A stretch of 64,000 nucleotides of DNA from Terriglobia bacterium (lineage in GTDB: Bacteria; Acidobacteriota; Terriglobia; Acidiferrales; UBA7541). The stretch lies in the NCBI GenBank assembly GCA_963695545.1, contig OY968796.1:1152001-1216000 (forward strand). The letters are read 5' to 3'. Positions 44,857 through 62,242 of this stretch are shown here, piece after piece; within the stretch, counting starts at the first letter, position 1; each line of letters opens with the position of its first letter. The notes under the pieces were generated by a model. That model saw nothing but the letters and a program-made list of their open reading frames with translations, made no database searches and was not told the origin of the DNA. Made by a program: the position numbers and the translations under genes.

Positions 44857-44873
44857 CGGCTCGCGAAGCGGAT

Positions 44874-46115
44874 ATGCGCGCCTCGGTTCTCCATTCCATA
44901 CCACAACGCCTCGTTCCCGCCTTCAGCACACAGCGTGGCTTGAAGCGCCGCGCACCGCGCAGATCAGAATTGCGCCGTGGTTCAGAAATTCCCGAACGCA
45001 TTGGCGGCCGCACTGGAATCGCGTTGCTCCTCGCGCTCGCAACTTTCGCCGTCGCTGGCTGCGGCGCGCCCGGTGAGCCTGAACCGCCAAAACCAATCGT
45101 GCCGCAACCCGTCGCCGATCTCGCCGCGCGGCAGCAAGGCGACACCGTAATCCTGACCTTCACGCTGCCGGCTCGTTCGACCGAAAATGAGAATTTGGAC
45201 GGCGTTCCCACGGTTGAGATTTACCGCGGCATGCTCGCTGCGGGAGAAGCGGGCCATAAAACAACTACGCATCTCGTCTACACAATTCCTGCCGCGCTCG
45301 TGGATACCTATCTCTCCGGCGAACATTTGGAATTTCGCGATCCATTTCACACCGATGATCTCGCGCGCGAAGCCGGCGCGAGCATGGTGTACATGGTGCG
45401 CACGAACGTCTCGCGCCGGCACGATTCCGCCGATTCCAACATCGCCGAAACGCAAATCTATCCCGTGCCCGCTCCACCCGTCGCGCTGCGTGCTGTCGTC
45501 ACCGAGCACGCGATCGAAGTCGCCTGGGACGCTCCCGCGGCGGCCTCGGGAATTTCAGGCTACCGCGTTTATCGCGGCGAACTCGCATCCGATTCCCCGC
45601 CGAACGAAACCGATCTCGCCAAAATGAAATTCGTTTCGCCGCTCGCGCTCGCGGGACCGGCATCCGAAACAGCCTTCGACGACGCGCAGTTTGAGTTCGG
45701 CCACACCTACGTCTATATCGTGCGCAGTGTGGCGCAATACGGACCGAACGAAGTTGAATCGGACGATTCCGCGCCCGCTATCGTCACCCCGCGCGACACA
45801 TTCCCTCCCGCCGCGCCGCGCGGCCTCGAAGCAATTTACGTCCCGGCAACCGCCGGGGCGCCTGCCGACATCGAACTCTCGTGGGACATCAGCCCGGAAT
45901 CGGACCTGGCCGGTTACAACGTCTATCGCAGTGAACAACCGGGCACACGAGGCCAGAGATTAAACCCGGAATTGTTGCCCAGCCCGGCGTTTCGTGATAT
46001 TCAGGTGGCCGCCGACAAGCATTACTTCTATTCGGTTTCCGCCGTCGATCGGGCTGGCAATGAAAGCTCCCTGAGCCCCGCGGTTTCCGCAGAAGTCCCG
46101 GCGAATTCGCCGTAG
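44874..46115 (+). CDS. Lipoprotein with fibronectin type III-like domains (true start may be further downstream)
   Basis: Lipobox VAGC, GYRVYR/GYNVYR, YSVSAVDRAGNES. Confidence 0.8.
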   Translation: MRASVLHSIPQRLVPAFSTQRGLKRRAPRRSELRRGSEIPERIGGRTGIALLLALATFAVAGCGAPGEPEPPKPIVPQPVADLAARQQGDTVILTFTLPARSTENENLDGVPTVEIYRGMLAAGEAGHKTTTHLVYTIPAALVDTYLSGEHLEFRDPFHTDDLAREAGASMVYMVRTNVSRRHDSADSNIAETQIYPVPAPPVALRAVVTEHAIEVAWDAPAAASGISGYRVYRGELASDSPPNETDLAKMKFVSPLALAGPASETAFDDAQFEFGHTYVYIVRSVAQYGPNEVESDDSAPAIVTPRDTFPPAAPRGLEAIYVPATAGAPADIELSWDISPESDLAGYNVYRSEQPGTRGQRLNPELLPSPAFRDIQVAADKHYFYSVSAVDRAGNESSLSPAVSAEVPANSP

Positions 46116-46149
46116 GCAGCTAGGCTCCGCAAGGAAAAAAGAAAGAGGC

Positions 46150-46614
46150 GTGAAGGCGATGACCCGAACTCAATTCTCGGGCATAGAGAGATTTTTCTCG
46201 CTGCGCGGCGCGACGCTGCGCACCGGAATCTTCACGGGCCTCGCGCTTTCCGCGGTGCTGGTGGCGTGGGTGCTCGTAGCCAATCGCGTCGCGCAACTTG
46301 AATCCTTCGCGCTCGAGCGCAATTGCGCCGCCGTCGGCGCGTTGCTGGCGCTGATGGCCATTCCGGTTTGCCGGTTCGTGAAATCTCCACGCGCGCTGTT
46401 TATTTCCGGCGTTGCCGCCTGGACGATTTTGACGTTCGCGTATATGGCGTTGGAAGTGTTTTTTCCGCGCCTCGAAGATCGAATGGGGCCGTTGCAACTC
46501 TTCATGCTCGGAGCGACATCCTACGGGCTTCTGGCCGTAATCGGTTGGGTGATCGGCATTATCCGCCTCGCGCGTCACCAGCCCCTGGTAGCGACGCGGC
46601 GCAGACATCCCTGA
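46150..46614 (+). CDS. Hypothetical membrane protein
   Basis: Four hydrophobic segments. Confidence 0.6.
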   Translation: MKAMTRTQFSGIERFFSLRGATLRTGIFTGLALSAVLVAWVLVANRVAQLESFALERNCAAVGALLALMAIPVCRFVKSPRALFISGVAAWTILTFAYMALEVFFPRLEDRMGPLQLFMLGATSYGLLAVIGWVIGIIRLARHQPLVATRRRHP

Positions 46615-46716
46615 TCCTCGCTCGCGCCGTCCCGCTGATCTGTCTCCTTCGGCGTTGTGATTTCCCGCAACGATCCCAACCCGACCCGTGGGCGGTCCAG
46701 CCTTTGACCTGAGGTG

Positions 46717-46881
46717 GGGGGTAGCGCACCCTTTGCCCGCGTCTGTAGTTTTTCAGTCCTCACGCGCAGATTCTACTAATAGCGACCTTCACCCTGGAGT
46801 AACATCGGGCGTCTGTCGGGCTGCGGTGTGCGCAGCCCGGGGTGGCCCATCCTTTGTCCGCTGCGGCGGACAAAGGGTGGG
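46717..46881. repeat. Left arm of the long inverted repeat containing a REP-like hairpin
   Basis: GGGGTGGCCCATCCTTTGTCCGCTGCGGCGGACAAAGGGTGGG; the core 46784-46881 matches the reverse complement of 47480-47576. Confidence 0.85.
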
Positions 46882-46898
46882 TCCGTGGGCTCCCCTTG

Positions 46899-47456
46899 AT
46901 GCCCTGGAATCTCAAATGCTACTACGGCAGCCAAGACCTCCATTTCCTTACGTACACGTGCTACCGGCGGTTGCCACTTCTTTCCTCCGCGCGCGCCAGA
47001 AACGTGTTCGTTGAGATTCTCGCGGAAGTCCGCGATGGCTACGGTTTTCTTCTCGCCGGATACGTCGTGATGCCTAACCACGTTCATCTCCTGATCGGCG
47101 AACCCGCGAAAGGAACGCCTTCCACCGTGATGCAAGTGCTCAAGCAAAGAGTCTCGCGCCGCCTGCGCGCCAGGAAGAGGCGCGCGCCGCAAACGCAACT
47201 CCAGCTCGCATTCGTCGAAGGCGAACTCATGCCGCGGCAATTCTGGCAGCGCAGATTTCACGATTTCAACCTGTGGAGTCACAAGAAAATAATCGAAAAG
47301 CTCGAATACGTGCACATGAATCCGGTGAAGAACAACCTGGTGGAACATTCGAAGCACCGCGCTCCGCGCGGGCCGGCAAAGGACTGGCCGTGGAGCAGTT
47401 GGTCGTACTACGCGAAGGGCGAGCAAGGACTCGTCCGGATCGACGAGAGTTCGTAG
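46899..47456 (+). mobile_element. REP-associated tyrosine transposase (RAYT, Y1 HUH family)
   Basis: HFLTYTC, YVVMPNHVHLL (HUH), FWQRRFHD, EYVHMNPVK, DWPWSS. Confidence 0.92.
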
Positions 47457-47479
47457 AAGCGATCCCGGAAATCGAAAGC

Positions 47480-47643
47480 CCCACCCGTTGTCCGCTGCGG
47501 CGGACAAAGAATGGGCACCCCGGGCTGCACAAGGCGCAGTCCGCCAGACGCGCCACGTTACTCCAAGGTGAAGGTCGTTAGTGGTATCATTCGCGCGTGG
47601 AGCACGAGAATCGCGAGACGCCCATATAGGGTCTGCCACCCGC
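47480..47643. repeat. Right arm of the long inverted repeat containing a REP-like hairpin
   Basis: CCCACCCGTTGTCCGCTGCGGCGGACAAAGAATGGGCACCCCGGGCTG...TTACTCCAAGGTGAAGGTC...CTGCCACCCGCC. Confidence 0.85.
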
Positions 47644-47645
47644 CC

Positions 47646-48119
47646 GTGCAGAACGTACAGAGCTTCCGCGCTTCCCCGGGGTGCACGGCAGCAGTCACAG
47701 CCCTCTCGACGGTTGCCGGAGCCTACGCCGGGGCATCGGTTCTCGGCCCCTTGCTAGCGCCGGCAGGCGCTGCTGCAGGGGCGCCGGGAGGGCCGCCAGG
47801 CGCCGCCGCGGGAGTCGCGGCGGCAGAGGTCGCCGGCGCTGCGGCAGGCGGGGCTGCCGGCCACGCAATCGCCCCAGCCGTTTCAAATATAATGTGCTCC
47901 TCCGGCACGGGGAGCGGAGGCCAGAGCGGCGGGTCGCGCGGCGGAGGCAGTGGGCAGAGAGAGAACCGGGCATTTAAAGAGGCAGTTAGGAGGATCAATC
48001 AGGATAGACGGGAGCCGTTGACCCCGGACCAGGTTCGAGCGCTTCACGACGAAATCCCGAACCAAGGATTTAGCCTTGATGAGATAGTGGAAATCGGCAA
48101 GGGAATGTTCAGGAACTGA
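47646..48119 (+). CDS. Orphan polymorphic-toxin C-terminal fragment (candidate)
   Basis: Gly/Ala-rich hydrophobic segment, GS linker, small helical domain ENRAFKEA...LHDEI...EIVE; begins at the REP boundary with no RHS core. Confidence 0.55.
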   Translation: MQNVQSFRASPGCTAAVTALSTVAGAYAGASVLGPLLAPAGAAAGAPGGPPGAAAGVAAAEVAGAAAGGAAGHAIAPAVSNIMCSSGTGSGGQSGGSRGGGSGQRENRAFKEAVRRINQDRREPLTPDQVRALHDEIPNQGFSLDEIVEIGKGMFRN

Positions 48120-48131
48120 GGACGGAAAACC

Positions 48132-48623
48132 ATGAGTGCTGCAAACGCGGAGATTATGGAAATCGTATCGACTCTAAAGGGCAAGGCGCCCTGGGGGGTC
48201 CGCTTGGGTCATGGTTCGTTCGTAACGATGGAGTTTGGAGACCCGGATCCCAGAGCAGGCGGTCGGGTCATCCATGGCGAGTGGCACCTGTGGCTGTACA
48301 TGTGTAACTGGAGGATCGAGGCCAAACACAGGATTTTCGCGGGATCAAACGACGACCGCAAAGCGATTGAGGCAACGCTGGGAGATTTATCGTTTGACAG
48401 CATCGAATCGATCGACGTTATACAGCCGTCGCTAGATCTCTCCATTCAGTTCCGGTCAGGGATAAGGATACTTACATTTTCGTCTTCCTCTGATCACGAT
48501 GAAGAAGAGTGGAAGCTATTTACCCCCGGCGGGAAATGCCTGCTGGCGTACGGCGACGGCACCTATGAGTACGCCAGAAGCGACGAACCTAGTCCACGGA
48601 CGAGCGGCGGCCCCGAGGCCTAG
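48132..48623 (+). CDS. Hypothetical protein, candidate immunity protein
   Basis: Starts 12 nt after the toxin-like ORF; acidic soluble 163 aa; lower GC. Confidence 0.55.
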   Translation: MSAANAEIMEIVSTLKGKAPWGVRLGHGSFVTMEFGDPDPRAGGRVIHGEWHLWLYMCNWRIEAKHRIFAGSNDDRKAIEATLGDLSFDSIESIDVIQPSLDLSIQFRSGIRILTFSSSSDHDEEEWKLFTPGGKCLLAYGDGTYEYARSDEPSPRTSGGPEA

Positions 48624-48732
48624 ATCGGCGGGTGGCGCAGCCTTTGACGTGAGGGTGGCCCTCGATAAGAACGAAGGCGCTGTCAAGGCGCAGAACGCAC
48701 GTCCCGGTGTTTTACCACCGCGGCGTTGCCAC

Positions 48733-48909
48733 AGAAGATGGAGGACCAAGACTCTGGAAATCTCACGGTAAATCATTTCGCTATGCCCCACACCAACCGT
48801 ATTCGAATAATAACTTATAGATAATATTGACATTACATTGCCGCCCGTGCTATCATGTTGCATGAGCCTCGTACCGCACCTCTCATCCGCATTCCCGCGC
48901 AAGATTTTT
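48733..48909 (+). repeat. 177-bp promoter-containing element, copy 1
   Basis: Ungapped match to the reverse complement of 53221-53397; TTGACA(48827)-18 nt-TATCAT(48851), ATG at 48862. Confidence 0.9.
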
Positions 48910-49395
48910 CCGTTCGGGCCCGGCTCAGCCGCGCAAATCCTGGCGGACAACTTTACGCCCGCACGTCGGAGCCTGCCTGCCGCCCGCCCTGCTCGGCCTA
49001 CAAAATCCCATCGATTGACCACAACCGAACCGTGCTTACCCGCACAAACGCGTCGCCGTAAACCGCTGATTCCAAACCAAATGCAAAAGAGTGCGCATCT
49101 TGCTGAAAATAAACGCTCGCAAGCCCATTGCGCTCAATCTCTTGCGCACTCTTTCTCACTCTTTTCCCGCAAGCCCTGTATTTGCCGCTCTTACGCAAAA
49201 GATACCCGGGGGTGTACCCCCCTCCAGCCGCGATCTCGCTCCCGCAACACGCATCACAAGCTCATCTCAGCCCGCAGTGACGGGGAGGTCGGCTCTCGGC
49301 GTTTCGACGGTCAAAACCTGCGTCCCACTGGCTGCGTGGAAGGCCTTCCGCGGTTCCTGTAAACTATCCGCGGCACAACGCCTAAAAGGGACATC

Positions 49396-50208
49396 ATGAA
49401 ATTTTGCCGATTCCAATTGCTTGAATTCAATGCCGCCGCGGCCGGCCGCTCCGGCGAAACCGTGCATCCCGAGCCGCGCATCGGCCGCGTCGAAGGCGAC
49501 ACGGTTCACGAACTCTCCGGCAGCCTGCTTGGCGAGAACAAGGCTTCCGGCCACACGTGGAAACTTTCCGAAGTGGCTCTGCTGCCGCCGTCGGTGCCCA
49601 CCAAAATCGTTTGCGTCGGGCGCAATTACCTCGAACACGCCGCCGAATTCAACAGCGAAGTTCCCAAGGAGCCGCTGATCTTTCTGAAACCGCCCTCCGC
49701 AATTATTGCGTCCGGAGAAACAATCGTTCTGCCCGCGATTTCCAAGCGCGTCGATTACGAAGGCGAGCTGTGCGTGGTGATCGCGCGGCGCTGCCGAAAA
49801 TTGTCCGATACGGACGACGTTCGCCCGTACATCGCCGGATACACCTGCTTGAACGACGTCAGCGCGCGCGATTTGCAATTCACGGATCCGCAATGGACGC
49901 GCGCGAAAGGATTTGACACGTTCTGCCCGTTCGGTCCCGTGCTCGAGACTGAACTCGATCTCAAGCACACCACGGTTGAGACTTACCTCAATGGCGTTAA
50001 GAAACAGTCCGCGCCGACCACGGACATGATTTTTTCCGTTGATGTTATAATTCGCTGGATCTCGCGCGTGATGACGTTCGAGCCGGGCGACATCATTGCC
50101 ACTGGCACGCCCTCGGGCGTCGGTCCGCTGGCCGCGGGCGACATCGTGGAAGTCGTCGTCAGCGGCGTCGGCACGCTGCGCAATTCGGTTCAGGCGGCGA
50201 ACTCTTAG
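49396..50208 (+). CDS. Fumarylacetoacetate hydrolase family protein
   Basis: KIVCVGRNY, FLKPPS, DYEGEL, NDVSARD, KGFDTFCP, TGTPSGVG. Confidence 0.93.
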   Translation: MKFCRFQLLEFNAAAAGRSGETVHPEPRIGRVEGDTVHELSGSLLGENKASGHTWKLSEVALLPPSVPTKIVCVGRNYLEHAAEFNSEVPKEPLIFLKPPSAIIASGETIVLPAISKRVDYEGELCVVIARRCRKLSDTDDVRPYIAGYTCLNDVSARDLQFTDPQWTRAKGFDTFCPFGPVLETELDLKHTTVETYLNGVKKQSAPTTDMIFSVDVIIRWISRVMTFEPGDIIATGTPSGVGPLAAGDIVEVVVSGVGTLRNSVQAANS

Positions 50209-50242
50209 CGCCAGCCGCGATGCGCGGACAAACAGGAATGAA

Positions 50243-50707
50243 TTGAAGGCGCTCACCGACGATTGGAGGCTCCTTGCCGCAGCGGGCGCGGCCGTCGCGG
50301 TGGCGATTGCCGTCGCGTCGTACGCGAAATTTCGCCGCCGCCCCGATGCCGACGAGATCGAGCGCAGGCGGCGCGCGCACGTGAATCAGATAGGACGCAT
50401 CGCCGAAGGACGCGTCACGGAACTCGCGGAGGTTCCGCCGTCCGCCGCGCCGAACGCTCGCTTCGGGATGTTTCGCGGCGCCGACAAAAATTCCGCCAAC
50501 CGCGCGGCGCGCAACCGAAAACTTCTCTGGTACACCTACTCGATTTCCGGCGTCACGTACGAAACCGCGCAGGACATCACCGGTCTTGAACATCGCGCCG
50601 CCGGACGCGGGCAATTGCTCTCCGGTCAACTAGCAAGCGTGAAGTACGATCCGGCGAACCCGAGCAATTCCATCCTGGTATCGGAAGACTGGTCGGGCCT
50701 GCACTAG
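50243..50707 (+). CDS. Hypothetical TM-anchored protein (DUF3592-like)
   Basis: YTYSISGVTY, VKYDPANPSNS. Confidence 0.65.
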   Translation: MKALTDDWRLLAAAGAAVAVAIAVASYAKFRRRPDADEIERRRRAHVNQIGRIAEGRVTELAEVPPSAAPNARFGMFRGADKNSANRAARNRKLLWYTYSISGVTYETAQDITGLEHRAAGRGQLLSGQLASVKYDPANPSNSILVSEDWSGLH

Positions 50708-50762
50708 CTCGCATCGCGCACCGCGCTCGAATCAACTGAAGCGGCGGAGACCGCTGATTCAG

Positions 50763-51047
50763 ATGTCGCAAATGCCCCGAAAAATCGCGATCGGCGTGTT
50801 CGCAGTGGTCGCAGCATTCAGCGTTCTGCTGGCTGCATCGGTCGCGGTTGTTTTTGCCACGCTGCGCATCGAGCGCATCGCAGCTCCTGCCGCGCACGCG
50901 GTCGCAGCCTTCGGCGAGCTGATTCTTGGCGCGGCCGTGCTGCTCGTGGCCGTCTACATCTCGACGCGCGTCGTCGTTCGCTCCCTCGCGACGGAAGTCG
51001 GCACTACTGGACGGCGCGACCTAACACCTCCCAAGCAAAAACCCTGA
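50763..51047 (+). CDS. Small 2-TM hypothetical protein
   Basis: Two hydrophobic helices. Confidence 0.5.
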   Translation: MSQMPRKIAIGVFAVVAAFSVLLAASVAVVFATLRIERIAAPAAHAVAAFGELILGAAVLLVAVYISTRVVVRSLATEVGTTGRRDLTPPKQKP

Positions 51048-51570
51048 AAGATTGGTGGGTAGGATGTATCAGTCCTCCACGGCGGGCTTCGATCCGCTCT
51101 GACAATCTCATTTGGAGAACGTTTCCCGCGATCGCCTGGAAGGACTCAACCAGAGGAGTGAGATCAATCCTGGCCGGATCATGCTCATATCCGATTACGA
51201 GTACCGCTCGACGCTCAGACCCTGAATACTCCAGCAGTTTGTAGCAATCGCCGATCGTGCTGACGTTTCCGGGATAGGGGTGTAAAAGATTGACCGACCA
51301 ATTCTCCGCTTCCTTGCCGTTGTCTCCAAATGGACGCGTGATCTTGACTTCGACTGCCCACTCGCCCGGGACGAGGAGATCTGAAGTTCTCTTTGTCCGG
51401 ACGCTCCCCCGATACCTCGGCAGCGTGTTTAAGTGCAATGAGATGCGCTTGACCAACTGAGGTTCGCCATACGGTCCAACACCCGGCTGGAACGCCCGAA
51501 AGTTCTCGTGAGACGCATCGACCTGAACGAGCGCGTCGCTGATATCCGAGACTAGTTCTTGCAAGGTCAT
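51004..51570 (-). CDS. Hypothetical protein, possible PD-(D/E)XK nuclease fold
   Basis: E...SDLLV...WAVEVK pattern; lower GC. Confidence 0.55.
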   Translation of the reverse strand: MTLQELVSDISDALVQVDASHENFRAFQPGVGPYGEPQLVKRISLHLNTLPRYRGSVRTKRTSDLLVPGEWAVEVKITRPFGDNGKEAENWSVNLLHPYPGNVSTIGDCYKLLEYSGSERRAVLVIGYEHDPARIDLTPLVESFQAIAGNVLQMRLSERIEARRGGLIHPTHQSFRVFAWEVLGRAVQ

Positions 51571-51626
51571 TGGCGAACCATTGTGAGAAGCGATTAGATG
51601 GCCAGTACCGCCTTTCCCTCCCTGAG

Positions 51627-52754
51627 CTACTGCTGTGGCGGAGGCGCTTCGGAGGGAGGCTGAGAATCGGGCGGAGGCGCGCCAGGGGCGGGCGGCGCAG
51701 CGGGCGTGGCGGTGATTTCGGGAAGGCGGCCGGCGGATTCGATGACTTGCTGCGCGAGATAATTTTCAACCTTAGCTTCATCGCGCGCTTCGGTGAGATA
51801 GGCGGTGCGCAGCAATTGCTCTTTGCGCGTGCGCAGGGCGTCGCGAATGGTTTGCTGTACGGATGGATCGTTCAGATCGCGCTGGCCGGGCGCTTCCTTG
51901 GAGATGAGCTTCAGGATGCGGTAGGAATCCGGGAGGACGATGACGTCACTGATCTCGCCGGGCTTAAGCGCCATTACTGCTTTTTTAAGCGCGGGATTGC
52001 TTTGGCCCAGCGAGGATTCCGGAACGTAACCGAGGTCGCCGCCGGAGCCGGCAGTCTGCGGATCTTCGGAATAATCCATGGCCAATTCCGAAAAATCCGC
52101 GCCGCTTTTCAGTTGCTGCATGAGCATGGCGACTTTGCGGCGAGCCTCAGCGTCGGTGGTGGCGTCGTCGTTCTTGCGATTGCGCACTTCGGGATCCTTG
52201 TGCGGCGTGACCACGATTTGCGCGAGGCGGTATTGGGTTTCCGCAACGTTGAACTGCTGGCGGTTCTCATTATAGAAGTCGGTGACGTCCTGATCGGTGA
52301 TGGTGACTTTGGAATTGACTTCGGCGTTGATGAGCTTCTGGATGGAGAGCTCGCGGCGAATATCTTTTTTGAGGTCGTCAACGGTGACGCCGCGCGCCTG
52401 CAACTGGCGTTGAAATTCATCGTCGGTGTAAGGACTCTTGAATTCGGTGAATTTATCCTCGACATCTCCATCGGAAGCGGACAGGCCGAGTTTCTGGGCG
52501 CGCTCGAGCAGAATTTCGTTGTTGATGAGGTCGTCGAGGATATTGAGCATGAGCGAGAGCGCTTCTTCGTGGGAGGGCATTTGCGCTTCGGGATTGACCC
52601 GCGTGCGGTAATACTGCTCGACCTCGCTGCGCTGAATCTGCGTGCCATTCACTTCGGCCCACACGTCGGGCGAAGGAGCTTCGCCCTTGCGACAGCCGCC
52701 CGCCCAGGCCACGGTCGCCACGATCAGTGCTGCCGAAATCAGCCGCTTTTGCAT
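51627..52754 (-). CDS. SurA/PrsA-like peptidylprolyl isomerase (lipoprotein)
   Basis: AGGC lipobox-like, AEVNG, FSELAMDYSED, GGDLG, LKPGEIS. Confidence 0.88.
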   Translation of the reverse strand: MQKRLISAALIVATVAWAGGCRKGEAPSPDVWAEVNGTQIQRSEVEQYYRTRVNPEAQMPSHEEALSLMLNILDDLINNEILLERAQKLGLSASDGDVEDKFTEFKSPYTDDEFQRQLQARGVTVDDLKKDIRRELSIQKLINAEVNSKVTITDQDVTDFYNENRQQFNVAETQYRLAQIVVTPHKDPEVRNRKNDDATTDAEARRKVAMLMQQLKSGADFSELAMDYSEDPQTAGSGGDLGYVPESSLGQSNPALKKAVMALKPGEISDVIVLPDSYRILKLISKEAPGQRDLNDPSVQQTIRDALRTRKEQLLRTAYLTEARDEAKVENYLAQQVIESAGRLPEITATPAAPPAPGAPPPDSQPPSEAPPPQQ

Positions 52755-52821
52755 CTCGCCTCGTTGAAGCAATGCGCTCCGCGCAGCCGATTAAAGCAAT
52801 GCGCTCCGCGCAGGCCGGTGC

Positions 52822-53013
52822 CTACGCCGCTTTGACGACTTTCCCGTCGCGCAGACACGATGTGCATACGCGCACTTGCTTGCGCACGCCGGAGACCACG
52901 GCGCGAACGCGCTTGAGATTGGGAATCCAGCGGCGACGCCGGGCATTATTGGCGTGGCTGATCACATTTCCATACTGCGGAGATTTTCCGCAAATTTCGC
53001 ATTTCTGCGCCAT
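52822..53013 (-). CDS. rpmB: 50S ribosomal protein L28 (Zn-binding form)
   Basis: CEICGK, GNVISHA, RRWIPNL, CTSC. Confidence 0.96.
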   Translation of the reverse strand: MAQKCEICGKSPQYGNVISHANNARRRRWIPNLKRVRAVVSGVRKQVRVCTSCLRDGKVVKAA

Positions 53014-53220
53014 GTCTGCTCCTTACAGTGTTTCCAGTACGCGTTTCAACAGCCACTAAAACCTACAAAGTATAGCAACGAACGTCACGCCAGCCTAGAA
53101 CGCGGTTTTGGGAAGAGCGATAGGCGGGGGCGATTGTGGCCATGCGCTCCGCGCAGTTGATTAAAGCAATGGGCTGCGCGCGGACCGGGGCCGAATGCTC
53201 GGAACGATCGGACCGTGACC

Positions 53221-53397
53221 GAAAATCGTGTGCGGGTGAGCGGACGGGAGGTGTTGTTCGAGGTTCATACTCAATGGTAGCACGAACGACAATACGATGT
53301 CAATATTACCTATGGGTCATTATTCGAATACAATTGGTGTGGGGCATAGCGAAATGATTTAGTGTGAGATTTGCAGGGTCTTGGTCCTCCGTCTTCT
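53221..53397 (-). repeat. 177-bp promoter-containing element, copy 2
   Basis: Minus strand TTGACA(53303)-18 nt-TACCAT, ATG at 53268; about 143/177 identical to copy 1. Confidence 0.9.
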
Positions 53398-53444
53398 AAC
53401 GATTGCGGTACGGGCGAGATGAGCCGCGACGGTCGAAATATCAG

Positions 53445-53513
53445 AAAACGTCCCGTCTGTCCCCGATGATCCGTCTGTCCCCGATGATCGTCCCCGATGA
53501 TCCCGATGATCCC
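53445..53513. repeat. Decaying tandem repeat (CCGTCTGTCCCCGATGAT)
   Basis: Units of 18, 18, 13 and 9 nt at 53453-53510. Confidence 0.85.
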
Positions 53514-53517
53514 AATC

Positions 53518-53844
53518 TCACCACAGGGGCGGAACACCCGGCTTGTACCAAGGATTGACTTGCCAGAAATGGACGAGTTGCACCGCGCCGATTGCGATTA
53601 GCGAAAGGCCAAGCGCCAGAAAAACGATGCTCGCAATGCCCAGGCGGCCATGAGGATAAGTTCGTTTATATTCTCGAACGAGCGTGAGTGCCTTCACAGG
53701 GATAAACGCATATGTGACCTGTTGGTCAGTCGAAAGTTTTCGGTTTATCTTTCCGATCATCACGTACAGAATCCGCAAGCAGATGCCCACTGCGCTCAAA
53801 CCAACGCAGAAAATTACGGCCGGAACGAACGGAAAAGTTATCAT
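53518..53844 (-). CDS. Small 2-TM protein, candidate RHS immunity paralog 2
   Basis: LYVMIGKIN, REYKRTYPHGRL, HFWQVNP. Confidence 0.7.
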   Translation of the reverse strand: MITFPFVPAVIFCVGLSAVGICLRILYVMIGKINRKLSTDQQVTYAFIPVKALTLVREYKRTYPHGRLGIASIVFLALGLSLIAIGAVQLVHFWQVNPWYKPGVPPLW

Positions 53845-54026
53845 TGCTCCACCCCTTCGGTATTCCACTGTGCCAGCGCGCTAAATTCGGCGGTCCGACG
53901 CTGGCTAGGGTCGGGCGTTCCGCGGGTTTGGCCGCGTCCCCTTTTAATTACCACTTTTCAAAGTCGGCGTCGGCAGCGCTAGTTTCCCGACATCGAACCT
54001 TAAACGCGCGCCCTGCCCTGGAAACC

Positions 54027-54365
54027 TCACCAGGGAGAAGGCCAAGGGGCTGGCCAATAGCTGGGGTTGGCCTGCCAGAAATGGATCAGGCGTACCGCCG
54101 CGACCAAAATTAACAGAATGCCAAATGCAAGGGCAGCGATACGCACGGCATTGAGGCGGCTGTGGGGGTACAGCCGTCTGAACTCTCGGTTGATCCTAAT
54201 CATCTTTGGGAAATGGAAGACCACGTATCCGATCTGCTGCTGGTCCGGGAGTCGTTGGTTTATCTTGCCGACGACCACATACAGCATCAGGGTCGAAATA
54301 TTTATCATTGCAGTGCCCAACGCGATCAAGACCACCGCATCAACCGGTGCAGTTATCATGGACAT
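54027..54365 (-). CDS. Small 2-TM protein, candidate cognate RHS immunity protein
   Basis: Start overlaps the RHS stop; LYVVVGKIN, REFRRLYPHSRL, HFWQANP. Confidence 0.72.
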   Translation of the reverse strand: MSMITAPVDAVVLIALGTAMINISTLMLYVVVGKINQRLPDQQQIGYVVFHFPKMIRINREFRRLYPHSRLNAVRIAALAFGILLILVAAVRLIHFWQANPSYWPAPWPSPW

Positions 54366-56180
54366 GCGGCTTGTCTCGCATAGTAGAGAACGGGGTCAAA
54401 CGGTGCCAACGCGAGGGCGCCTGCACGGCCCATACTGTGCTGCTTTGCTGTCTTGGTGCCCGCGATCGCCGCTCCCGGGTTGCCCGCAAGCGAAGCCCCG
54501 TAGACACGAGCAGTTTTTCCAAACGATGCAAATCCCCCAACTCCTTCGGCAGAGGCAGAGGCGGTAGCAAAAGGTCCCGAATAGCCGCTATTGTCGGATC
54601 CCAGGTCACCGTAGATGAAACCCGAGGAAACTGACGCGCCCTCTCCCCCGCCTTGTCCGCCTCCAGTCCAAGATAAGGTTACGTTGCCGTTGTTATAGTT
54701 GACGACGGTCGAAACGCTGCCAGTAAGCCCGAGCCCGCCAGGGAAATTTACCGTCAGACTCGTCGCGCGACCCTGAGGAAGCGCCGAACAGACCTTCGCG
54801 GCGACTTGGCGGAAGAATCCAGGCGATTGCGGTGATTGGAAATTTCTGTATATCTCTTGGCAAAGGAAGCTCGACATGTCGCACACGAATGTGTCAAACA
54901 ACGGGGGAGGGGGAGGGCATGGCGTATCTCCGCAGCCGTGAGGCGCACGCCGTTGCGCCGCCCATTGTGGGTCGCCGCCGGTAAGTACTTGGCCGCCGTC
55001 GGAACTGCAGTCTGACGGCTCCTCGTCATCGGTAATACTGTCAGCGGGGCTGGCTTGCCTGTCGCGTCCAATCGTGTAGAGGCATCCGTCAGGACTTAGT
55101 CCGCTCGGATCGGTTAGGGTGACTGGGTTGTTGCGCACGTACGTATAGAGATTCAACTGCTGTGGATCCGTTGGATCGGCCTGGGAAATTCCGGATGGGT
55201 CCGGGGACATAAAGCGGGCTCCGGAGAAAGTGTAGAAGCGCGCGTCGAAGTTGTAGAGGTTGGATTCGGTGTCGAATTCCTTGTGGGTAAATTTGTAGTT
55301 ATTGGTGCTGGTCTCGGTGGCGACGTAACACTCGTTGCCGTAGGGACAGTAGTCGATATCTTCGAGGGTGTTGCCGCTCGAATCGGTCAGGATGCGGGTC
55401 GAGTCGAGATCGTCGGCGAAGTAATATTCGACGTCGCCGGAGGAGGAGGCGTCGCGGCGGGCGATGCGTGAGCCGTTCAGGAAGACGTACTCGTGGAAGG
55501 CGCTGTCGGTGGTGCTGCCAGTTCCGTCAGTCTCTTCAAGCGCGTCGGTGCCGGTTCCGTACCAATAGAGCTCGTAAAAGGGAGGGTCGGTAGCCATGTA
55601 CTTCTCGACGCGCTTGCCATCGCCGTCGTAAAAGTAGTTCACGCCAGCGGTGGAGGTCAACTCGTTTTCGGCATTGTAGGTGTACGTGGGAGACGTCGGC
55701 GGACAAGGCGAACTCGTCTCCGCAAGCAGATTGCCCGCGGCGTCGTAGCAGTAGCCGGAGATCTGATTCTGGGCGGTGGCTGCCATAGAGGCGGAGGACT
55801 CCTCGAACGGCAGGCTCTCGTAGGACTGGAATTGAGTCAAATTGCCCCAGGGGTCAATCTGGTAGGACTCGCCCCAAGCTCCGCTAGCGGCAGACGCGAT
55901 CCGATTCAGCGGATCATAAGCAAACGTTTCCGATCGCGATGAGGTGACGCCATTTGCGATATGCGTGATGTTCCCATTGTTGCCGGTATGGGGACTGGAA
56001 GGGCACGCGCCGCCGGACAGCGGATAGTAACAATAAGTGAGATTGAGTTCCGCGCTGCCCGTGGAATACGCCAGGATCGAGGACGGCTGGAGTCGAGGAT
56101 TGTACGAAGCGTCGAGATTGATGCCCGTGAATGAGCCGCCTTCGCCCATGAGCGCCGACGTTAGCGCACCGGCGGGATTG
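54356..56180 (-). pseudogene. RHS repeat protein, C-terminal part (RHS core plus toxin tip)
   Basis: YDPLNR, YDAAGN, YDGDGKR, KFTHKEFD, FMSPDP, NLYTYVRNNP, DPSGL followed by a variable Gly-rich tip. Confidence 0.9.
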
Positions 56181-56220
56181 TGACCAGCCCGAGTTTTTGT
56201 ACCACGGTGAATGAGAGAGT

Positions 56221-57063
56221 CTACATCACAGCCGTCGACGGCGAACCGAGAATTGGCGGCACCAAGGGGCTACAGGCCACCGGCGCCGGTGGCCTGTAGC
56301 CCAGCGCTGAGTGCGGACGCAGCGTGTTGTACACCATCCGCCATTTCTCGATCACGATCTGCGCTTCCTTCAGCGAGTAAAAAATCTCTCCGTTCAAACA
56401 TTCATCGCGCAATTTCCCGTTGAAGCTTTCGCAGTAGCCATTCTCCCAAGGGCTTCCCGGTTCGATGTACAGCGTCCCCGTTCCCACCTTCGCCAGCCAA
56501 CTCCTCAGCTCCTTGGCCACGAACTCCGGGCCGTTGTCCGAGCGAATATGTTCCGGAATTCCCCGGTAAAGCATCACGTCCGCCAGCGCTTCGATCACTT
56601 CGTATCTCCCCAGCCTTCTCGCCACGCGGATCGCCAGGCACTCCCGCGTGTATTCGTCGATCAGCGTCAGCATTCGCAGTGTTCGGCCGTCGTGGGTCAT
56701 CGCGCTCACGAAATCGTAGCTCCACACATGGTTGGCTCGTTCCGGCCGGAGACGAACACACGATCCGTCGTTCAACCACAGCCTTCCTCGCGGCCTTTGT
56801 CCCTGCGGCACTTTCAGCCCTTCGCGCCGCCAGATCCGCTGCACCCGATCCTTGCCCACATACCAGCCCCGTGCTTGCAACAGCGCCGTGATCCTCCGAT
56901 AGCCGAAGCGCCCGTACTCGCTGGCCAGCGCCACGATGTCTCGCGTCAGCGCGTCTTCATCCGTTCGGTGGATCACCTCGTAGCGTTGTGTCCCTCTCCA
57001 CTGCCCCAGCAACCGGCAGGCATGCCGCTCTGATACTTGGTAGCTCTCGCGTGCATGCTCCAC
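56221..57063 (-). CDS. IS3 transposase OrfB (DDE)
   Basis: FGYRRI, WSYDF, IDEYTRE, SDNGPEF, PWENGYCESFN, RPHSALGY. Confidence 0.93.
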   Translation of the reverse strand: MEHARESYQVSERHACRLLGQWRGTQRYEVIHRTDEDALTRDIVALASEYGRFGYRRITALLQARGWYVGKDRVQRIWRREGLKVPQGQRPRGRLWLNDGSCVRLRPERANHVWSYDFVSAMTHDGRTLRMLTLIDEYTRECLAIRVARRLGRYEVIEALADVMLYRGIPEHIRSDNGPEFVAKELRSWLAKVGTGTLYIEPGSPWENGYCESFNGKLRDECLNGEIFYSLKEAQIVIEKWRMVYNTLRPHSALGYRPPAPVACSPLVPPILGSPSTAVM

Positions 57064-57086
57064 CGCGCTACGTCGCCGCTCAGGGC

Positions 57087-57365
57087 TTAGAAGTTTCCCT
57101 CTGCCACATCCTTCAGAATTTGCTTCTCCAACGAAAGCTCCGCCACCAACCGTTTCAGCTTGGCGTTTTCCCGCTCCAACTCTTTGAGGCGTTTCGCTTG
57201 ATCCAACTTCAGGCCGCCGTATTCCTTCCGCCAGCGGTAGTAGGTCTGCGCGGTGATCTCGGCTTCCTTGCAGGCTTGTGGGGTGCTCTTTCCGTTGGCG
57301 ATTTCAACTTCAACTTGCCGCAGCAGCGTGACGATCTGCTCCGGCTTGTATCTCCTCATCGGCAT
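57087..57365 (-). CDS. IS3 transposase OrfA (HTH), probably fused to OrfB by -1 frameshift
   Basis: QTYYRWRKEYGG, LKELERENAKLK; junction GAGGGAAACTTCTAAGCCC. Confidence 0.92.
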   Translation of the reverse strand: MPMRRYKPEQIVTLLRQVEVEIANGKSTPQACKEAEITAQTYYRWRKEYGGLKLDQAKRLKELERENAKLKRLVAELSLEKQILKDVAEGNF

Positions 57366-57430
57366 ACCAGCTTCCCTCCAGAGTGAATTCTCTCTCACTC
57401 CCGCTGGTACAAAAAACCCCGGTCAGGTCA

Positions 57431-59229
57431 GTGATGAAGGTTCCCGACGAGACCATTCTGCTGACGCCGGTCAGATTTCCTCGCACGGTTTGGGATGCCG
57501 AATAGTTGGAATCGTCGTGGTTCGTCGCGCCGGTCTGGGAGGACAGTGAGGTAGCGTCGTAGGAAAAGTTCGTCTGCGCAATCATAGTTCCCCTGCTCGA
57601 TCCGCTGCCACGATACACACTGATGGACGATGGGAGGTCTAAGATATGCTGATTCTCGTACGTGCTGGTTTGGACGTAACTCACGTCGGTTTCCCGAAGG
57701 AGGTTGCCGTTGAAATCGTAGACCTGGACCAAATCGGGGAGGTACGCGTAGCCCGTATACCCGTATTTGCTTGTGGATGACATTCCGTTTCCTATCGATG
57801 TCGTGACCGATTCCACGTCTTGGAGGTCATCCTCGACATACGTGGCGCTTCTTAGCAGAGTTCCAGAGGACGAGCCCGCGTAGAAGTTCGCCACATACTG
57901 GGTCAATATAAAGTAGTCCGCGGGGCAGTAATGATACGTGAAAGCGTAGGTTGATTGGTTCTCGGTGCCGCTTTCATCGGCCGGGTCCGTAACCGTCAGT
58001 GCGGCATTTCCCAGCGACGGATCGCCCCCCTGACAGGAAATCGCTGACCAGTTGAACCCCCACGTGGCCCCTTGCTCGGTAAGCGTTGCCAGCTTTAGGT
58101 CGCCGACGAAAAAACCGTCCCCGTTGGGTGGATTGACGACTTGGTAGGTGAACCCCACCTCGCCGCCCGTGGGCAACGTCATGCTGGTCATTTGCCCATA
58201 GTCTCCTGGACTCGTTCCCCCGTCGTAGCCGAATTGATAGCTTCTGCCGTCGGGTAGAGTGATGCTTTGTACGACCATCATCGGGCCTGTGAACTGAGTG
58301 GTGCCGTTAAAGCCGCCAACCCAGGCGGGGAAATTGGTGCTTACCTGGATGGTTTCCATCTGAATTGTGGCTCCGCCATAACTGTAGGTAGGCGAGGAAC
58401 TCGAGCAATTGGCGGTGCATTGCATATTCGGAATTTGCCGCCCAAGTTCGTCTTGAAGGTTGCTCGTGCCTGGAAAATAAAAATTGCCGTTGGAATCCTC
58501 GACGTTGCCAGAGCAGGCGTACTCGTATTGCGTACTCCCGGTGTAGCTGGCCGCGCTGCTGGTACACACGGATGCTCCGTGCTTATCCCAAATCTGTGCG
58601 GTCATCGAGGTAGCGCTTATGGTGACGGATATCTGGTAGCCGCTCGAATCCTGCGCGTAACCGGGCGTGACCTGGTTCGCGTAACCGCAGGCTGGCATCG
58701 AGTTGTCAAGGGTGCCGAGCCCAAACTGATGCTCTGTCCCGCTCGGGTCGATGTATACGAAATTTTGCCACGATTGGTATGACCAAGGGGAAGACCCATT
58801 GCCGCATTGCACGGATGAGCCTTCGCTAGTAGTGGACCCGAACATGCCGACAGGGCTGCCGGTAAATCGCCAGCCGGCGGTTGAATTGTCCGGAGTAGCG
58901 TCGTTCCACACGTAATTGTAGCCTTCGCCGGTGGGGTACGAAGATATCGAGTAGAACTGGCTGTCATAGGTCATCCCCAGATTGACAGTCTGTCCGTTTC
59001 GTTGCTTGTAGCTGAGAAGGGGGAACGCCAAGTGGACGTTCCCGTTCTCCAAATTGACCTCGCCCATGGGAATCTGCATGGAGGGGCGACTCGGCGGCGT
59101 CGGTCCAAGGCGCATCATGATGTCGTCGTCGTCGTTCTGTGCGACGAGCGGTAAGCAAAAAGCAACAAGAAGGAGCGCGCAGATTGAAGAAATACAGAAG
59201 ATCACGGCAGACGGGGTGCGCATGAGCAT
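57431..59229 (-). pseudogene. RHS repeat protein, N-terminal part with Sec signal peptide
   Basis: Signal peptide, VNLENGNVH, TYDS, TLPDGRSY, TLPTGG, RGNLT; cut by IS3. Confidence 0.85.
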
Positions 59230-59321
59230 TCCCTCCGCAGGGCTTCGAGATGTGGTTGTCGCCGCGCCACGAAACATTTCACGGCGCCATGATTCTCTTA
59301 TTTCTATAAAGTGTAGTCGCG

Positions 59322-59537
59322 TTACGTGTCAAGGAGAATTATGGCGTCAGCGATAGGTCCATCGGACAGCAACACTTCGCGGAGTGGGGAAAGGCGGGCT
59401 TCGGCGAGGGGCAGGCCGGAGGCGACCAATTTTTGGACGTGCTGATCGAAGTGGAAGCGGAGCTCGGCGTCGAGTTCGGTTTCGACGGCGTTGCGTCGGA
59501 ACAGGGAGCGCAGGCGAATCCAGAGATCGTTGAGCAT
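59322..59537 (-). pseudogene. Truncated acidobacterial ADOP-type ABC permease (permease prefix domain only)
   Basis: RLRSLFRR...ELDAELRFHFD...GL-x3-EAR then abrupt loss of similarity; directly follows PadR. Confidence 0.8.
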
Positions 59538-59544
59538 GGGACTC

Positions 59545-59889
59545 CTACGCGGTTTCCAATACTTGGGCCACGGCGGCCGCCAGTTTCTTCCATTCGCTTT
59601 TTTCGGTTTCGAGCTGTTTGCGGCCGGTTTTGGTGAGTTCGTAGAATTTCGCGCGGCGATTGTTTTCGGAGGCTCCCCAGCGGGCTTTGATCCAGCCGCG
59701 GCGTTCGAGGCGATGGAGCGCTGGATATAAGGAGCCTTGCTGGATCTGGAGAACGTGGCTCGAGACCTGGTGGATGCGCTCGGAGATGGCCCAGCCGTGC
59801 TCGGGACCGAGCGCGAGGGTGCGGAGGATGAGCAGGTCGAGGGTGCCCTGCGGAAGATCGATGCGTTGATCGGTTGGGCGTTCCGGCAA
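59545..59889 (-). CDS. PadR family transcriptional regulator (acidobacterial type)
   Basis: [34 protein letters not shown]. Confidence 0.92.
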
Positions 59890-59990
59890 GAATGTCCCCT
59901 GATACTTCTACAGGAGTATACGCCATCTCTTGTCGAAGTGCAAGAGGAAAAGCCGGCTCGTTAGGAATCGGCGGCGCGGCGTGCGTTCGG

Positions 59991-61289
59991 CTAGACGTAA
60001 TCCCAGCGCTGCGCGATTTTGCGGGCGATCGCGAAGAGCACAACGCCAGTTGCGAGAAGCACGGAGACCTGCGGCCAAAGATGCGAGACCGGCTCGTCGC
60101 GCCAGAACACCTTGGTGAAACCGTCGATGGCCCAAGCGTTGATGGTAAGCAATCCGGCTTTCTGCACCGCCTCGGGCATAAGAAAGCGCGGAAACATGCT
60201 GCCGCCGACCGAAGACATAATCAAAATCACCAGCGTCGAGAGCGCGCCCAATTGGGCGCGCGTGCGGCAGATGCTGGCGAGCAACATTCCGAAAGCACCG
60301 ACCGCGAAAGCGGTGCAGACTCCCATCACGATGAAACCGGGGATGTGATGGAATAAATCAAGTTTGAAGACGGCCCAGGCCCAGAGAAACATAATCACCA
60401 GTTGTGAGAACGCCAGCATGGTGTTGAAGGCGAGTTTGCCCGCCAAGAGCGAAGTCATGGTCACACGCGAGCTGAGGACGCGATCCAGGGTGCCGCTTTC
60501 GGCTTCGTCAAGCAGCGAACCGGACGATCCACTCGCCGTGAACAGCAGGAACATCACGCCGATCGCGGCGGCGTAGAACGACACCATGGGATTGTTCTTA
60601 TTTTCTCCGACCACGGCGCGGGTCTTGACCGCGATGATGCCGCCGCTGCTGCTGGACGCATTTGCGGCGTTGTCTGCGGTGACGGTCGCGGCAGTCTCAT
60701 GCTGACGCAAGCGTTCGAGGCCGGCGTCCATCTGTTTCTGTTGCGCCGGCGTGAATCCGCCGACCCATTGACCCGCGTACTTTGAGCCCTGTTCGGCCAT
60801 GACATCGGGCATGGAAGTCATTGCGACTTTTTGCAAAAGGCCTGAGACCATCTGCGGTGCGACGGTGTCACTGGCGTCGTTTAACAGCTCGATCGCTGGA
60901 TGGCCTTGATCGCCGCGGAAAGAAAAGGAAATTGGATTTTCGCCGAAACCGGACGGAATGATAAGCGCGACGGAAACATCGCCGGCTCTCACCGCGGCTT
61001 CCGCAGTTGCCGCGGTGTAGTCGGGTTGCTGCACACCTTTCCTGGGCGCGGGGCTGGTTCTGACAACGAGAGAACCCTCGAGCTCCAGGCCCCTTACCAA
61101 TTGTTGCGATGCGTGACTCTGATCTTGGTCCACCACGATGACGTTGATTTTGGGCACAGTGTCTCGCCGACCGCCGAAGATCACGGCAAAAATGCTGAAG
61201 AAGGCGATCGGCAGAACGAAACTGAGCGCCAACGCGGCGCGATCGCGGCGCAGGGAAACAATGGCGGTGCGGATGATCGGGACGATCAA
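59991..61289 (-). CDS. ABC-2 type exporter permease
   Basis: N-terminal TM, large extracellular loop, ESGTLDR, GGSMFP. Confidence 0.88.
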   Translation of the reverse strand: MIVPIIRTAIVSLRRDRAALALSFVLPIAFFSIFAVIFGGRRDTVPKINVIVVDQDQSHASQQLVRGLELEGSLVVRTSPAPRKGVQQPDYTAATAEAAVRAGDVSVALIIPSGFGENPISFSFRGDQGHPAIELLNDASDTVAPQMVSGLLQKVAMTSMPDVMAEQGSKYAGQWVGGFTPAQQKQMDAGLERLRQHETAATVTADNAANASSSSGGIIAVKTRAVVGENKNNPMVSFYAAAIGVMFLLFTASGSSGSLLDEAESGTLDRVLSSRVTMTSLLAGKLAFNTMLAFSQLVIMFLWAWAVFKLDLFHHIPGFIVMGVCTAFAVGAFGMLLASICRTRAQLGALSTLVILIMSSVGGSMFPRFLMPEAVQKAGLLTINAWAIDGFTKVFWRDEPVSHLWPQVSVLLATGVVLFAIARKIAQRWDYV

Positions 61290-62242
61290 TCGCGCAACTC
61301 CCTTCCCGTCAAGTGCAAGAACACGGACTCGAGATTCGGCCGGTGCAGCGAGACGTCAATCACATCCAGGCCGGCGGTGGCGGCATCGTCGAGCAGGCCG
61401 GCAATCTCCGTGGGACGCGCAACGGTGAACTGCGCGGTTGAATCGACCAAACGCCCGCCGCGCAGCTCGACCCAGGCAGCGACTCCATCGGAGGGGCCCG
61501 CAAAGCGCGCGAGCACCTGGCTGCGCGACGCGAAAGCATTCTCGACAAGTTCTTCGTTCGTGCCGAGGGCGATGATGCGACCGTGGTCGACTATGGCGAC
61601 GCGGTCGCAGAGGCGCTCGGCTTCTTCCATATAGTGCGTGGTGTAGATGATGGCGGTGCCTTCGCTGTGGAGCGTTTCGATCATTTCAAAGATGCGATTG
61701 CGGGATTGCGGGTCCACTCCGACGGTCGGCTCGTCCATCAGCACCAGCTTCGGGCGGTGGATAATTCCGGCGGCCATGTTCAGCCGGCGCCTCATGCCAC
61801 CGGAGAGATTCTTGGCAAGCTCCGCGGCGCGATCTTGGAGCGATGACCAATCGAGACACCATGCGACGGCTTCGCGCAGGCCGGCACCGGCCAGCCCGTG
61901 GTATCGGCCGAAAGATTCCAGATTTTCCTTACACGTGAGCCGCGGATAGAGGGCCAACTCTTGCGGCACCCATCCGAGGGCCGCGCGGGCCGCGGCTGAA
62001 TTCGCCGGAAAACCAAAGACCGCGACCCGGCCCGCGTCCGGAATCACGCGGCCAACAATGCTGCGGATCAGCGTGGTTTTGCCGGCGCCGTTGGGCCCAA
62101 GCAGGCCCAGGCATTCGCCAGCACGGAGTTCGAGCGTGATGCCATCGACGGCGGTCACTTGGCCGAAGCGCTTGACCAACGCCTCAACCTGTAGAGGCAG
62201 CGGCGACGAGGATGAAACCGGACTAGCGGGCGCGGATACCAC
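61286..62242 (-). CDS. ABC exporter ATP-binding protein
   Basis: GPNGAGKT, LSGGMRRR, MDEPTVGVDPQSR, THYMEEAE. Confidence 0.93.
   Translation of the reverse strand: MVSAPASPVSSSSPLPLQVEALVKRFGQVTAVDGITLELRAGECLGLLGPNGAGKTTLIRSIVGRVIPDAGRVAVFGFPANSAAARAALGWVPQELALYPRLTCKENLESFGRYHGLAGAGLREAVAWCLDWSSLQDRAAELAKNLSGGMRRRLNMAAGIIHRPKLVLMDEPTVGVDPQSRNRIFEMIETLHSEGTAIIYTTHYMEEAERLCDRVAIVDHGRIIALGTNEELVENAFASRSQVLARFAGPSDGVAAWVELRGGRLVDSTAQFTVARPTEIAGLLDDAATAGLDVIDVSLHRPNLESVFLHLTGRELRD

Follow-up and report, generated by a model that had tools for sequence, protein, structure and literature searches.

The present analysis concerns a 64,000-nt stretch of the genome of a Terriglobia bacterium (G000, a single 4.16-Mb contig of 60.6% GC; C1:1152001-1216000), hereafter the window, which carries two Rhs toxin/immunity loci beside the terminal inverted repeats (TIRs) of Y1 (HUH) transposase elements and beside copies of a 177-bp repeat. 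The reading favoured here, with slightly better than even confidence, is that the ends of these elements, known as TIRtrons, cut, move and trim Rhs tip/immunity modules by joining of a single end, and that the 177-bp element is a general promoter repeat. The original prediction had proposed that a RAYT captures or shuffles toxin/immunity cassettes bounded by repetitive extragenic palindromes (REPs), with the 177-bp element as a docking site or boundary. All features were found where it had placed them in the window. Five congeners (G001-G005), individual loci of other genomes (L numbers) and four low-depth contig sets (runs X1-X4) were compared; the runs come from one study, possibly include the source sample and are not independent.

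The first locus lies on the plus strand and is headed by an element with both ends, TIR-A. Its left arm (46716-46881) is composed of a degenerate terminus, a spacer and an inner hairpin, and 139 nt of it are 71% complementary to the right arm, with which it pairs in the fold. A class 2 Y1 transposase of 185 aa (46899-47456; NHVH, WQ and YVHMNP motifs) is encoded between the arms and has two paralogues elsewhere in G000. The right arm (47480-47644), delimited by repeat comparison and fold, contains a hairpin, an outward extended -10-like motif (TGGTATCAT) and the terminus GCCACCCGCC. It is followed by a predicted Rhs C-terminal toxin tip (47645-48119), the 5' side of which is cut by the TIR-A end with no core remaining, and by a predicted cognate immunity gene of 163 aa (48132-48623). 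By TIR-A comparison, a lone short TIR-A arm (48627-48732) then turns its outer end toward the immunity stop. A degenerate short TIR-A arm on the other side (46688-46715) is a direct repeat of the arm at 48627 (78% over 32 nt), and since the two arms run in the same direction the whole cassette is enclosed between them. All these features are on the plus strand.

In L260 the frame from 47645 matched an Rhs protein at its C-terminus (E 5e-7), the homologue following DPLG, and in L261 it matched a small gene that stands alone (E 2e-5). These were the two best among 14 matches in other genomes (401 genomes), and the remaining ones were weak and of low complexity. Homologues of the 163-aa gene come after the same tip in L261 (E 1e-20) and L260 (E 7e-4). 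Judged by this homology, the predicted tip and immunity genes of the window are a real Rhs pair and form an orphan tip/immunity module. Neither gene was assigned to a family in Pfam, NCBIfam or PADLOC, the tip C-terminus gave no usable Atlas match, and a DUF6188-like fold of the immunity protein is a lead only. No longer protein ending in the tip C-terminus was found among 26 candidates, which is weak evidence. In other Acidiferrales-like genomes (L243-L250), homologues of the 163-aa gene are lone low-GC genes amid housekeeping genes, mostly without a toxin.

The second locus, on the minus strand, shares its 3' layout with the first, as had been described. In both, an immunity-like stop is followed 3-4 nt on by a short repeat and about 48-85 nt further by the 177-bp element. 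The repeat at 48627 begins 3 nt past the stop at 48623 and the element comes about 85 nt later, while the array at 53445-53513 begins 4 nt past the stop at 53518 and the element comes about 48 nt later. The two element copies form an inverted pair (48733-48908 and 53222-53397; 176 nt, 81% identity). The two short repeats bear no relation to one another and come from two different Y1 elements. The shared layout is the product of three separate repeat families, TIR-A, TIR-B and the promoter (P-T) family to which the 177-bp element belongs. A single RAYT had been placed behind both cassettes; two enzymes, those of TIR-A and TIR-B, are involved. In the 53445 array, GGGGACAGACGGGAC, the end of the second Y1 element (TIR-B, GGGGACAG), is expanded in nested form; the array sits in a TIR-B arm (53398-53513) made up of GGGGACAGACGGGAC and the decayed start of the element's own Y1 gene. 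The GGGGWSAS motif is fitted by the GGGGACAGACGGGAC and GGGGACAG of TIR-B and not by TIR-A. A complete TIR-B element with its own Y1 gene was found in L276, and G000 holds a fragment of this gene only. The second locus had been taken for a tip cassette and is instead an Rhs gene of full length (about 1,200 codons), which an IS3-family element (56176-57432; nine identical copies in G000) divides into a 5' part (57433-59229) and a 3' part with YD repeats, core and tip (54356-56175; TIGR03696 69.7 bits, PF05593). It is followed by predicted immunity gene A (54027-54365; 112 aa), which overlaps the Rhs stop, and by predicted membrane-type immunity gene B (53518-53868; 116 aa), which was assigned by position and 43% identity to gene A. 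Pfam, NCBIfam and PADLOC gave no family for either.

The call of an intact RAYT was borne out. The H61-V-H63 and Y137..NP motifs of the TIR-A transposase are complete, the NF047646 score is 97 against a cut-off of 80 bits, and H61, H63, Y137, N141 and P142 are invariant across nine transposase sequences. The three copies in G000 show dN/dS of 0.14-0.20. The enzyme scored below the IS200/IS605 cut-off (NF033573, 42 vs 55 bits), and a Y---NP motif rather than Y---Q, the presence of TIRs and a dinucleotide bias in place of a tetra- or pentanucleotide target set it apart from that family. A single-sequence structure model reached a mean pLDDT of 41 and was left unused. From 193 tblastn matches, 64 distinct TIR-A elements with both ends were obtained, with a median length of 826 bp, arms of about 140-170 nt and the termini GGCGGGTGGC and GCCACCCGCC. 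Flank duplication of more than 2 nt was absent in all 64, and no GTAG foot was present in the flanking hairpins and termini of the TIR-A elements examined. The repeats had been described as REPs; they are the terminal inverted repeats of mobile TIRtrons with nothing of the GTAG type. Going by structure against published descriptions, the TIR-A element appears best filed with the TIRtrons. In a comparison with integron-like arrays, where a recombination site directly follows each stop, one of 64 generic ends lay within 15 nt of a stop.

Recent movement of TIR-A is seen in the congeners. Two G001 contigs carry copies with 100% identity over 752 nt, copies in G005 share 99.5% over 839 nt, and in both genomes the near-identical copies have unrelated flanks. 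Out of 286 ends, 47 had an uninterrupted homologue (75-100% identical) and 42 could be scored; a G|C join was found at 24 of these 42 junctions, which are not independent of each other, against a null share of 19.7% (p 9e-8). Between the target G and the invariant CGGGTGGC, TIR-A junctions show one to three additional G (or GA). The idea that targets mimic the terminus was true at one junction, that of the fpg copy described below (10 of 12 nt), and was rejected in general.

Analysis of Rhs modules in this genome and its relatives revealed TIR ends at many module boundaries. In G000, two of three Rhs-core matches touch TIR-A ends. Rhs matches were present in 26 of 155 transposase loci (15 of the 67 loci of at least 10 kb), and within this genus a TIR end lay within 3 kb of 17 out of 28 Rhs clusters. 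The proposal of bounded cassettes stood in so far as element ends bound modules and breakpoints coincide with the ends, a cut Rhs core adjoining 10 of 117 element ends at many core positions; it failed in that the cargo is not toxins only. A downstream TIR end was found in 35 of 56 distinct modules from biased loci, and lone ends faced the module 20 times vs 2 (p 1e-4, with one locus double-counted and one probably mis-scored). Within classical arrays of three genera (L282, L283, L285), arms separate an immunity gene from the core fragment that comes next. A fusion of a TIR-B arm, including the Y1 gene start, with Rhs core was found five times in G001 and G002, after five different genes. The DNA upstream of the fusion copies was unrelated in 9 of 10 pairs, and similarity stopped near the core end. 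The same fusion after five genes speaks against a passive scar, which would be expected to stay behind one gene.

Two duplications end at TIR-A termini. One, in G005, covers 503 nt of core plus tip at 98.6%; it is truncated by a TIR-A end and joined to a different toxin end. In G000, C1:3537286-3537641 (L003:9287-9642) is an exact 356-nt copy of C1:1228197-1228552, 2.3 Mb away, holding the 3' half of a tRNA-Ala, the spacer and the first 44 codons of an fpg-like gene. This copy lies between two direct arms and ends at a TIR-A terminus; it is one of nine near-identical repeat pairs in G000 that are not IS3, and the only one at a TIR end. Its other edge falls in the anticodon loop, which would point to an earlier integrase island. 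In the contig sets a 339-nt two-copy piece was present, and the left junction was bridged in X4; the right junction was absent from the pieces shown.

A mechanism can be proposed by analogy with TnpA-REP, for which, in the accessible parts of the literature, single-strand cleavage at a dinucleotide and strand transfer are described. The HUH enzyme would nick single-stranded DNA at a terminus, which it would then join to a G|C site close by. Where a lone arm lies 5' of a core fragment, the arm could thereby attack a site beyond the immunity gene and give a circle made up of the arm, the core fragment, the tip and the immunity gene. If the circle re-entered by Rhs core homology, arrays in the order immunity gene, arm, core, old tip would result; if it re-entered at another arm, it would leave direct-repeat arms, the arrangement present at 46688/48627 and on either side of the fpg copy. 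Both predicted patterns were seen. Events in which the immunity gene is left intact would be retained by selection. The full TIR-A element of the window was probably a later arrival, which removed the core. A simple version with cassettes circularly permuted at one point was rejected, since the core positions at which cassettes begin and stop are not the same (about 288 vs 275 at L001). Taken a step further, the fusion of a lone arm to core, with HUH joining past the immunity gene, may make Rhs diversification self-renewing, each joining freeing a circle that swaps tips and seeds orphan immunity genes; this extension is put forward tentatively, at somewhat below even confidence. The TIRtron process is not exclusive to toxins.

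A large part of the same data can be read in another way. Rhs loci may be a permissive sink, into which TIRtrons insert like any insertion sequence, hop locally and delete up to the immunity gene, which selection protects; the arms would then be scars and the modules would move by no other means than homologous recombination and horizontal gene transfer. This explanation is considered a serious possibility, yet a less probable one than mobilisation by TIRtron ends, for which confidence was kept near even since a ratchet of insertion and deletion accounts for much of what was found. In five relatives, IS3-type integrases were found within 3 kb of an Rhs core in 7 of 24 cases and TIR-A ends in 13 of 48 (Fisher p 1), where chance would give 0.3 integrase matches and 0.8 TIR-A ends. 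With IS3-type elements equally enriched, co-location alone shows only that Rhs loci draw mobile DNA. One of the nine IS3 copies in G000 lies inside the Rhs gene of the window, and the IS-free form of this gene is present in contigs of X3 and X4 (two of four runs). Another IS3 copy, at C1:3534890-3536150, is missing in X4, and from these absences IS3 appears to be moving in the population. Many TIR-A junction donors lie 0.2-5.7 kb off in the same locus, some inside the element's own gene, and loss of the far arm could account for part of the orientation bias. Dispersed orphans were expected to be more TIR-bounded than full-gene clusters; this was rejected (18/51 vs 6/18), and the lack of difference fits the sink.

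Several further observations weigh against mobilisation by TIRtron ends. The loci were picked for closeness to RAYTs or TIR ends, which inflates raw co-occurrence, and outside this genus a TIR end was found at 7 of 41 Rhs clusters. Homologues of the 163-aa gene are mostly solitary, with a TIR end at one of eight loci examined. Most TIR neighbours are unrelated accessory or housekeeping genes; those of full elements are diverse, Pfam giving Rhs or immunity for 2 of 91 and no family for most. An end lay within 60 nt of an immunity stop at 10 of 31 module ends vs 10 of 64 in the baseline (p 0.11); six further reading frames run into an arm, a class that cannot be counted in the immunity-stop baseline. 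No precise empty site was found for any of the 64 full TIR-A elements, and neither circles nor a clean cassette-less population variant were seen in the four low-depth contig sets. On the other side, the sink leaves three observations hard to account for, namely one arm-core fusion behind five different genes, a window pair at a site that has no Rhs in five congeners, and an fpg copy that moved 2.3 Mb or came from a sibling cell.

The 177-bp element proved to be a dispersed promoter repeat. The first copy (48733-48908, plus strand), delimited by profile matches, is composed of a linker, a TTCGAA palindrome, a predicted sigma-70-type promoter (-35 at 48827, -10 ending at 48856) and the start of a leaderless open reading frame (ORF). 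This leader ORF (48862-49362; 166 aa), supported by stop counts per frame, runs through the T hairpin repeat (49075-49227), of which a profile search gave 89 copies in G000. The second copy (53222-53397, minus strand), found by repeat comparison, is without the T repeat and has an ORF of 35 codons. In G000 there are 62 profile matches at E<=1 and 57 at E<=0.1; a strict pattern gave 64 matches in G000, 3-35 in the five congeners and 0-3 in 35 other relatives, with none for the reversed-pattern control. The P-T family is largely confined to one genus. The 177-bp element belongs to a young subfamily of four copies. In 54 P-T copies (median identity 59%) the distance from TTGACA to a start codon is 34-36 nt, and their stops number 4, 137 and 167 in frames 0, 1 and 2 over 5,137 codons. 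The dN/dS of the leader ORF is about 0.7-0.8, indicating weak amino-acid constraint, and with stops nearly absent from frame 0, what is selected is apparently that the frame stays open. The role of this frame may be that its translation protects the transcript.

Other properties of the P-T copies were also recorded. The T repeat is of two types, and TTCGAA is present in 53 of 55 copies. The GC content is 0.586 upstream of the copies vs 0.616 downstream (p 2e-5), and the upstream motif TTTCCACA/TGTGGATA is one that we take to be DnaA box-like. The gene after T is on the same strand in 46 cases vs 39 on the opposite strand, a count that is uninformative owing to a crude gene caller. A word-based search gave two relatives of the leader ORF, and Rfam returned no match for the 177-bp element or the T repeat (0 matches at E up to 1 over positions 44000-62000 of the window). 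It had also been considered that the 177-bp element holds the RAYT start codon, and this was dropped as the arm homologues diverge before that point.

These results bear on the dedicated system of the original prediction, in which one RAYT docks toxin/immunity cassettes at the 177-bp element. Some of the layout does speak for it. All four young copies have a TIR arm directly upstream and three of them follow Rhs tip/immunity genes; the order Rhs module, TIR, promoter recurs in G001, G003 and L134. In G000, TIR arms stand directly upstream of P-T promoters at 8 of 28 arm patches, where 0.13 would be expected, as do 2 of 8 TIR-B motifs, and 4 of 12 P-T promoters in G001 are preceded by arms. A weaker form of the association therefore holds. 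As a toxin-specific docking site, however, the element was not upheld: 57-64 copies are spread genome-wide, most without toxin genes, and only 3 of 57 clearly follow Rhs tip/immunity genes, a fourth following an unverified immunity-like gene. Two unrelated TIR families are involved, and the P-T family is almost confined to the genus whereas TIR-Rhs junctions are not. The genome-wide census already refutes dedicated docking for the most part, and it is regarded as very improbable; the 177-bp element serves more generally as a repeated promoter next to which foreign DNA gathers.

The orthologous sites in the congeners were also compared. The interval between the membrane gene and FAH is 6 nt in G001, G002 and G005 vs 2,781 nt in G000. 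This site is occupied in G004 by 2.8 kb of unrelated inserted DNA that includes a promoter copy in reversed orientation, and in G003 by kinase genes that precede a different promoter copy. The G004 insert (L067:1230-3980) carries what we take to be HTH- and HNH-like genes. The expectation of swapped cassettes in such intervals was borne out in part: the site is empty in three of five congeners and the window cassette is bounded by TIR-A, but no Rhs swap was seen and the cargo in G003 and G004 is of another kind, beside other element copies, which counts against dedicated docking. Downstream of rpmB, synteny breaks in G001, G002, G004 and G005, the contigs of which reach past rpmB; TIR-A arms are present there in G001 and G004, and no Rhs was found there in any of the four. 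In G002, rpmB is followed by a presumed Fur/PerR-like and catalase-peroxidase-like gene pair (L073:1809-3161), and the same presumed pair is punctuated by TIR-B ends in G003 (L075:3967-7544).

One more explanation dispenses with mobilisation and supposes that the association is selected for expression, outward promoters of the arms activating orphan immunity genes that are otherwise silent. Of 64 left arms, 30 have an outward extended -10-like motif, and Rhs matches are opposite in strand to the transposase in 20 of 26 loci (L087-L241), which places left arms upstream of tips. It leaves unexplained the lone arms downstream of immunity genes, the arm-core fusion and the fpg copy, and is held to be the least probable of the explanations, very unlikely as a whole.

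Comparison with known systems was made against the accessible parts of the papers cited. TIRtrons, or TIRYTs, carry a Y1 gene between long terminal inverted repeats and include an acidobacterial group (Di Nocera et al. 2013, PMC3733652; Quentin et al. 2018, PMC6006769). TIR-A (64 elements) and TIR-B (L276) agree with them in having a Y1 gene with TIR flanks and repeats that occur as singles, dimers and clusters, and TIR-B has the GGGGWSAS motif. TIR-A differs from most TIRtrons in having no GGGGWSAS and a 185-aa enzyme without a long C-terminal tail, although TIRs without the motif are also listed (Di Nocera et al. 2013, PMC3733652). These papers deal with structure only, whereas recent movement, G|C preference, flank capture and a link to Rhs are described here. 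REPtrons are reported to exist as single copies that are inherited vertically and do not transpose as a unit, and to be associated with GTAG-tagged REPs (Ton-Hoang 2012, PMC3333891; Corneloup 2021, PMC8266576; Bertels 2017, PMC5581495). TIR-A shares with them a Y1 enzyme of class 2, hairpins on its flanks, specificity for a dinucleotide (C|T in E. coli) and local amplification of ends, and differs in being multicopy (three in G000) at non-orthologous sites, in having no GTAG tag and in G|C joining.

For Rhs displacement, a circular intermediate with re-entry by core homology has been proposed (Jackson 2009, PMC2935791; Koskiniemi 2014, PMC3967940). As far as the accessible text goes, that model forms the circle by homologous recombination, knows no co-occurring integrase and leaves the origin open. 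The present loci resemble displacement loci in their arrays of core fragment, tip and immunity gene with variable length of the core fragment, and differ by transposon termini at module boundaries and by many modules far from a full Rhs gene. The rAID-1 and polyimmunity loci (Ross et al., 10.1101/471110; Zhang 2012, PMC3482391) similarly combine a recombination enzyme and short intergenic repeats with acquired immunity genes. In rAID-1 a XerD-type tyrosine recombinase stands upstream of a single long co-directional immunity array; in the present genomes an HUH Y1 enzyme that is encoded by a mobile element is found with short scattered loci, tips and core fragments that are kept, and mixed cargo. 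Like putative mobile promoters (Nijveen 2012, PMC3575422), the 177-bp element is a repeated promoter before unrelated genes; unlike them, it occurs as about 60 diverged P-T copies with a frame open from the predicted +1 through a hairpin repeat. In a literature mostly outside subscription papers, no published description of TIRtron, Rhs displacement and mobile promoter in combination was found, and RAYT and Rhs were mentioned together only where treated separately. The parts are of known kinds, with rAID as a functional analogue, and the combination is new as far as found.

A few other features remain to be placed. At C1:1710000-1715000 and 2956300-2962600, runs of accessory genes are separated by TIR-A arms in cassette-like arrays without toxins, and some of these genes begin or end exactly at an arm. 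Inside or beside TIR-A hairpins, L050, L051, L055 and L277 have genes that we take, from their N-terminal sequence, to be IS110-like. In the window, a further short dispersed repeat (ATGCGCTCCGCGCAG-like) occurs at 47351-47386, 52764-52822 and 53134-53192; a related piece inside the transposase gene forms a nine-residue in-frame insertion that the paralogues are without. The ORF at 51004-51570 (minus strand) has no family in Pfam, NCBIfam or PADLOC.

The findings bear on two questions, the roles of RAYT-like enzymes beyond the spread of repeats and the origin of Rhs tip/immunity circles. Defined substrates make the proposal testable, namely the 10-nt terminus, the G|C target and the predicted circle junction. 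If self-renewing diversification is true, it would supply an enzyme-made source for the circle, on whose origin the displacement model does not decide, and would give a RAYT-like enzyme a task of relevance to the host. Even if Rhs loci are a permissive sink, a RAYT-like element moves here as a unit with flanking DNA, unlike REPtrons in the accessible reports. Separately, there is a promoter family of about 60 copies, mostly in one genus, with a leader ORF apparently held open by selection.

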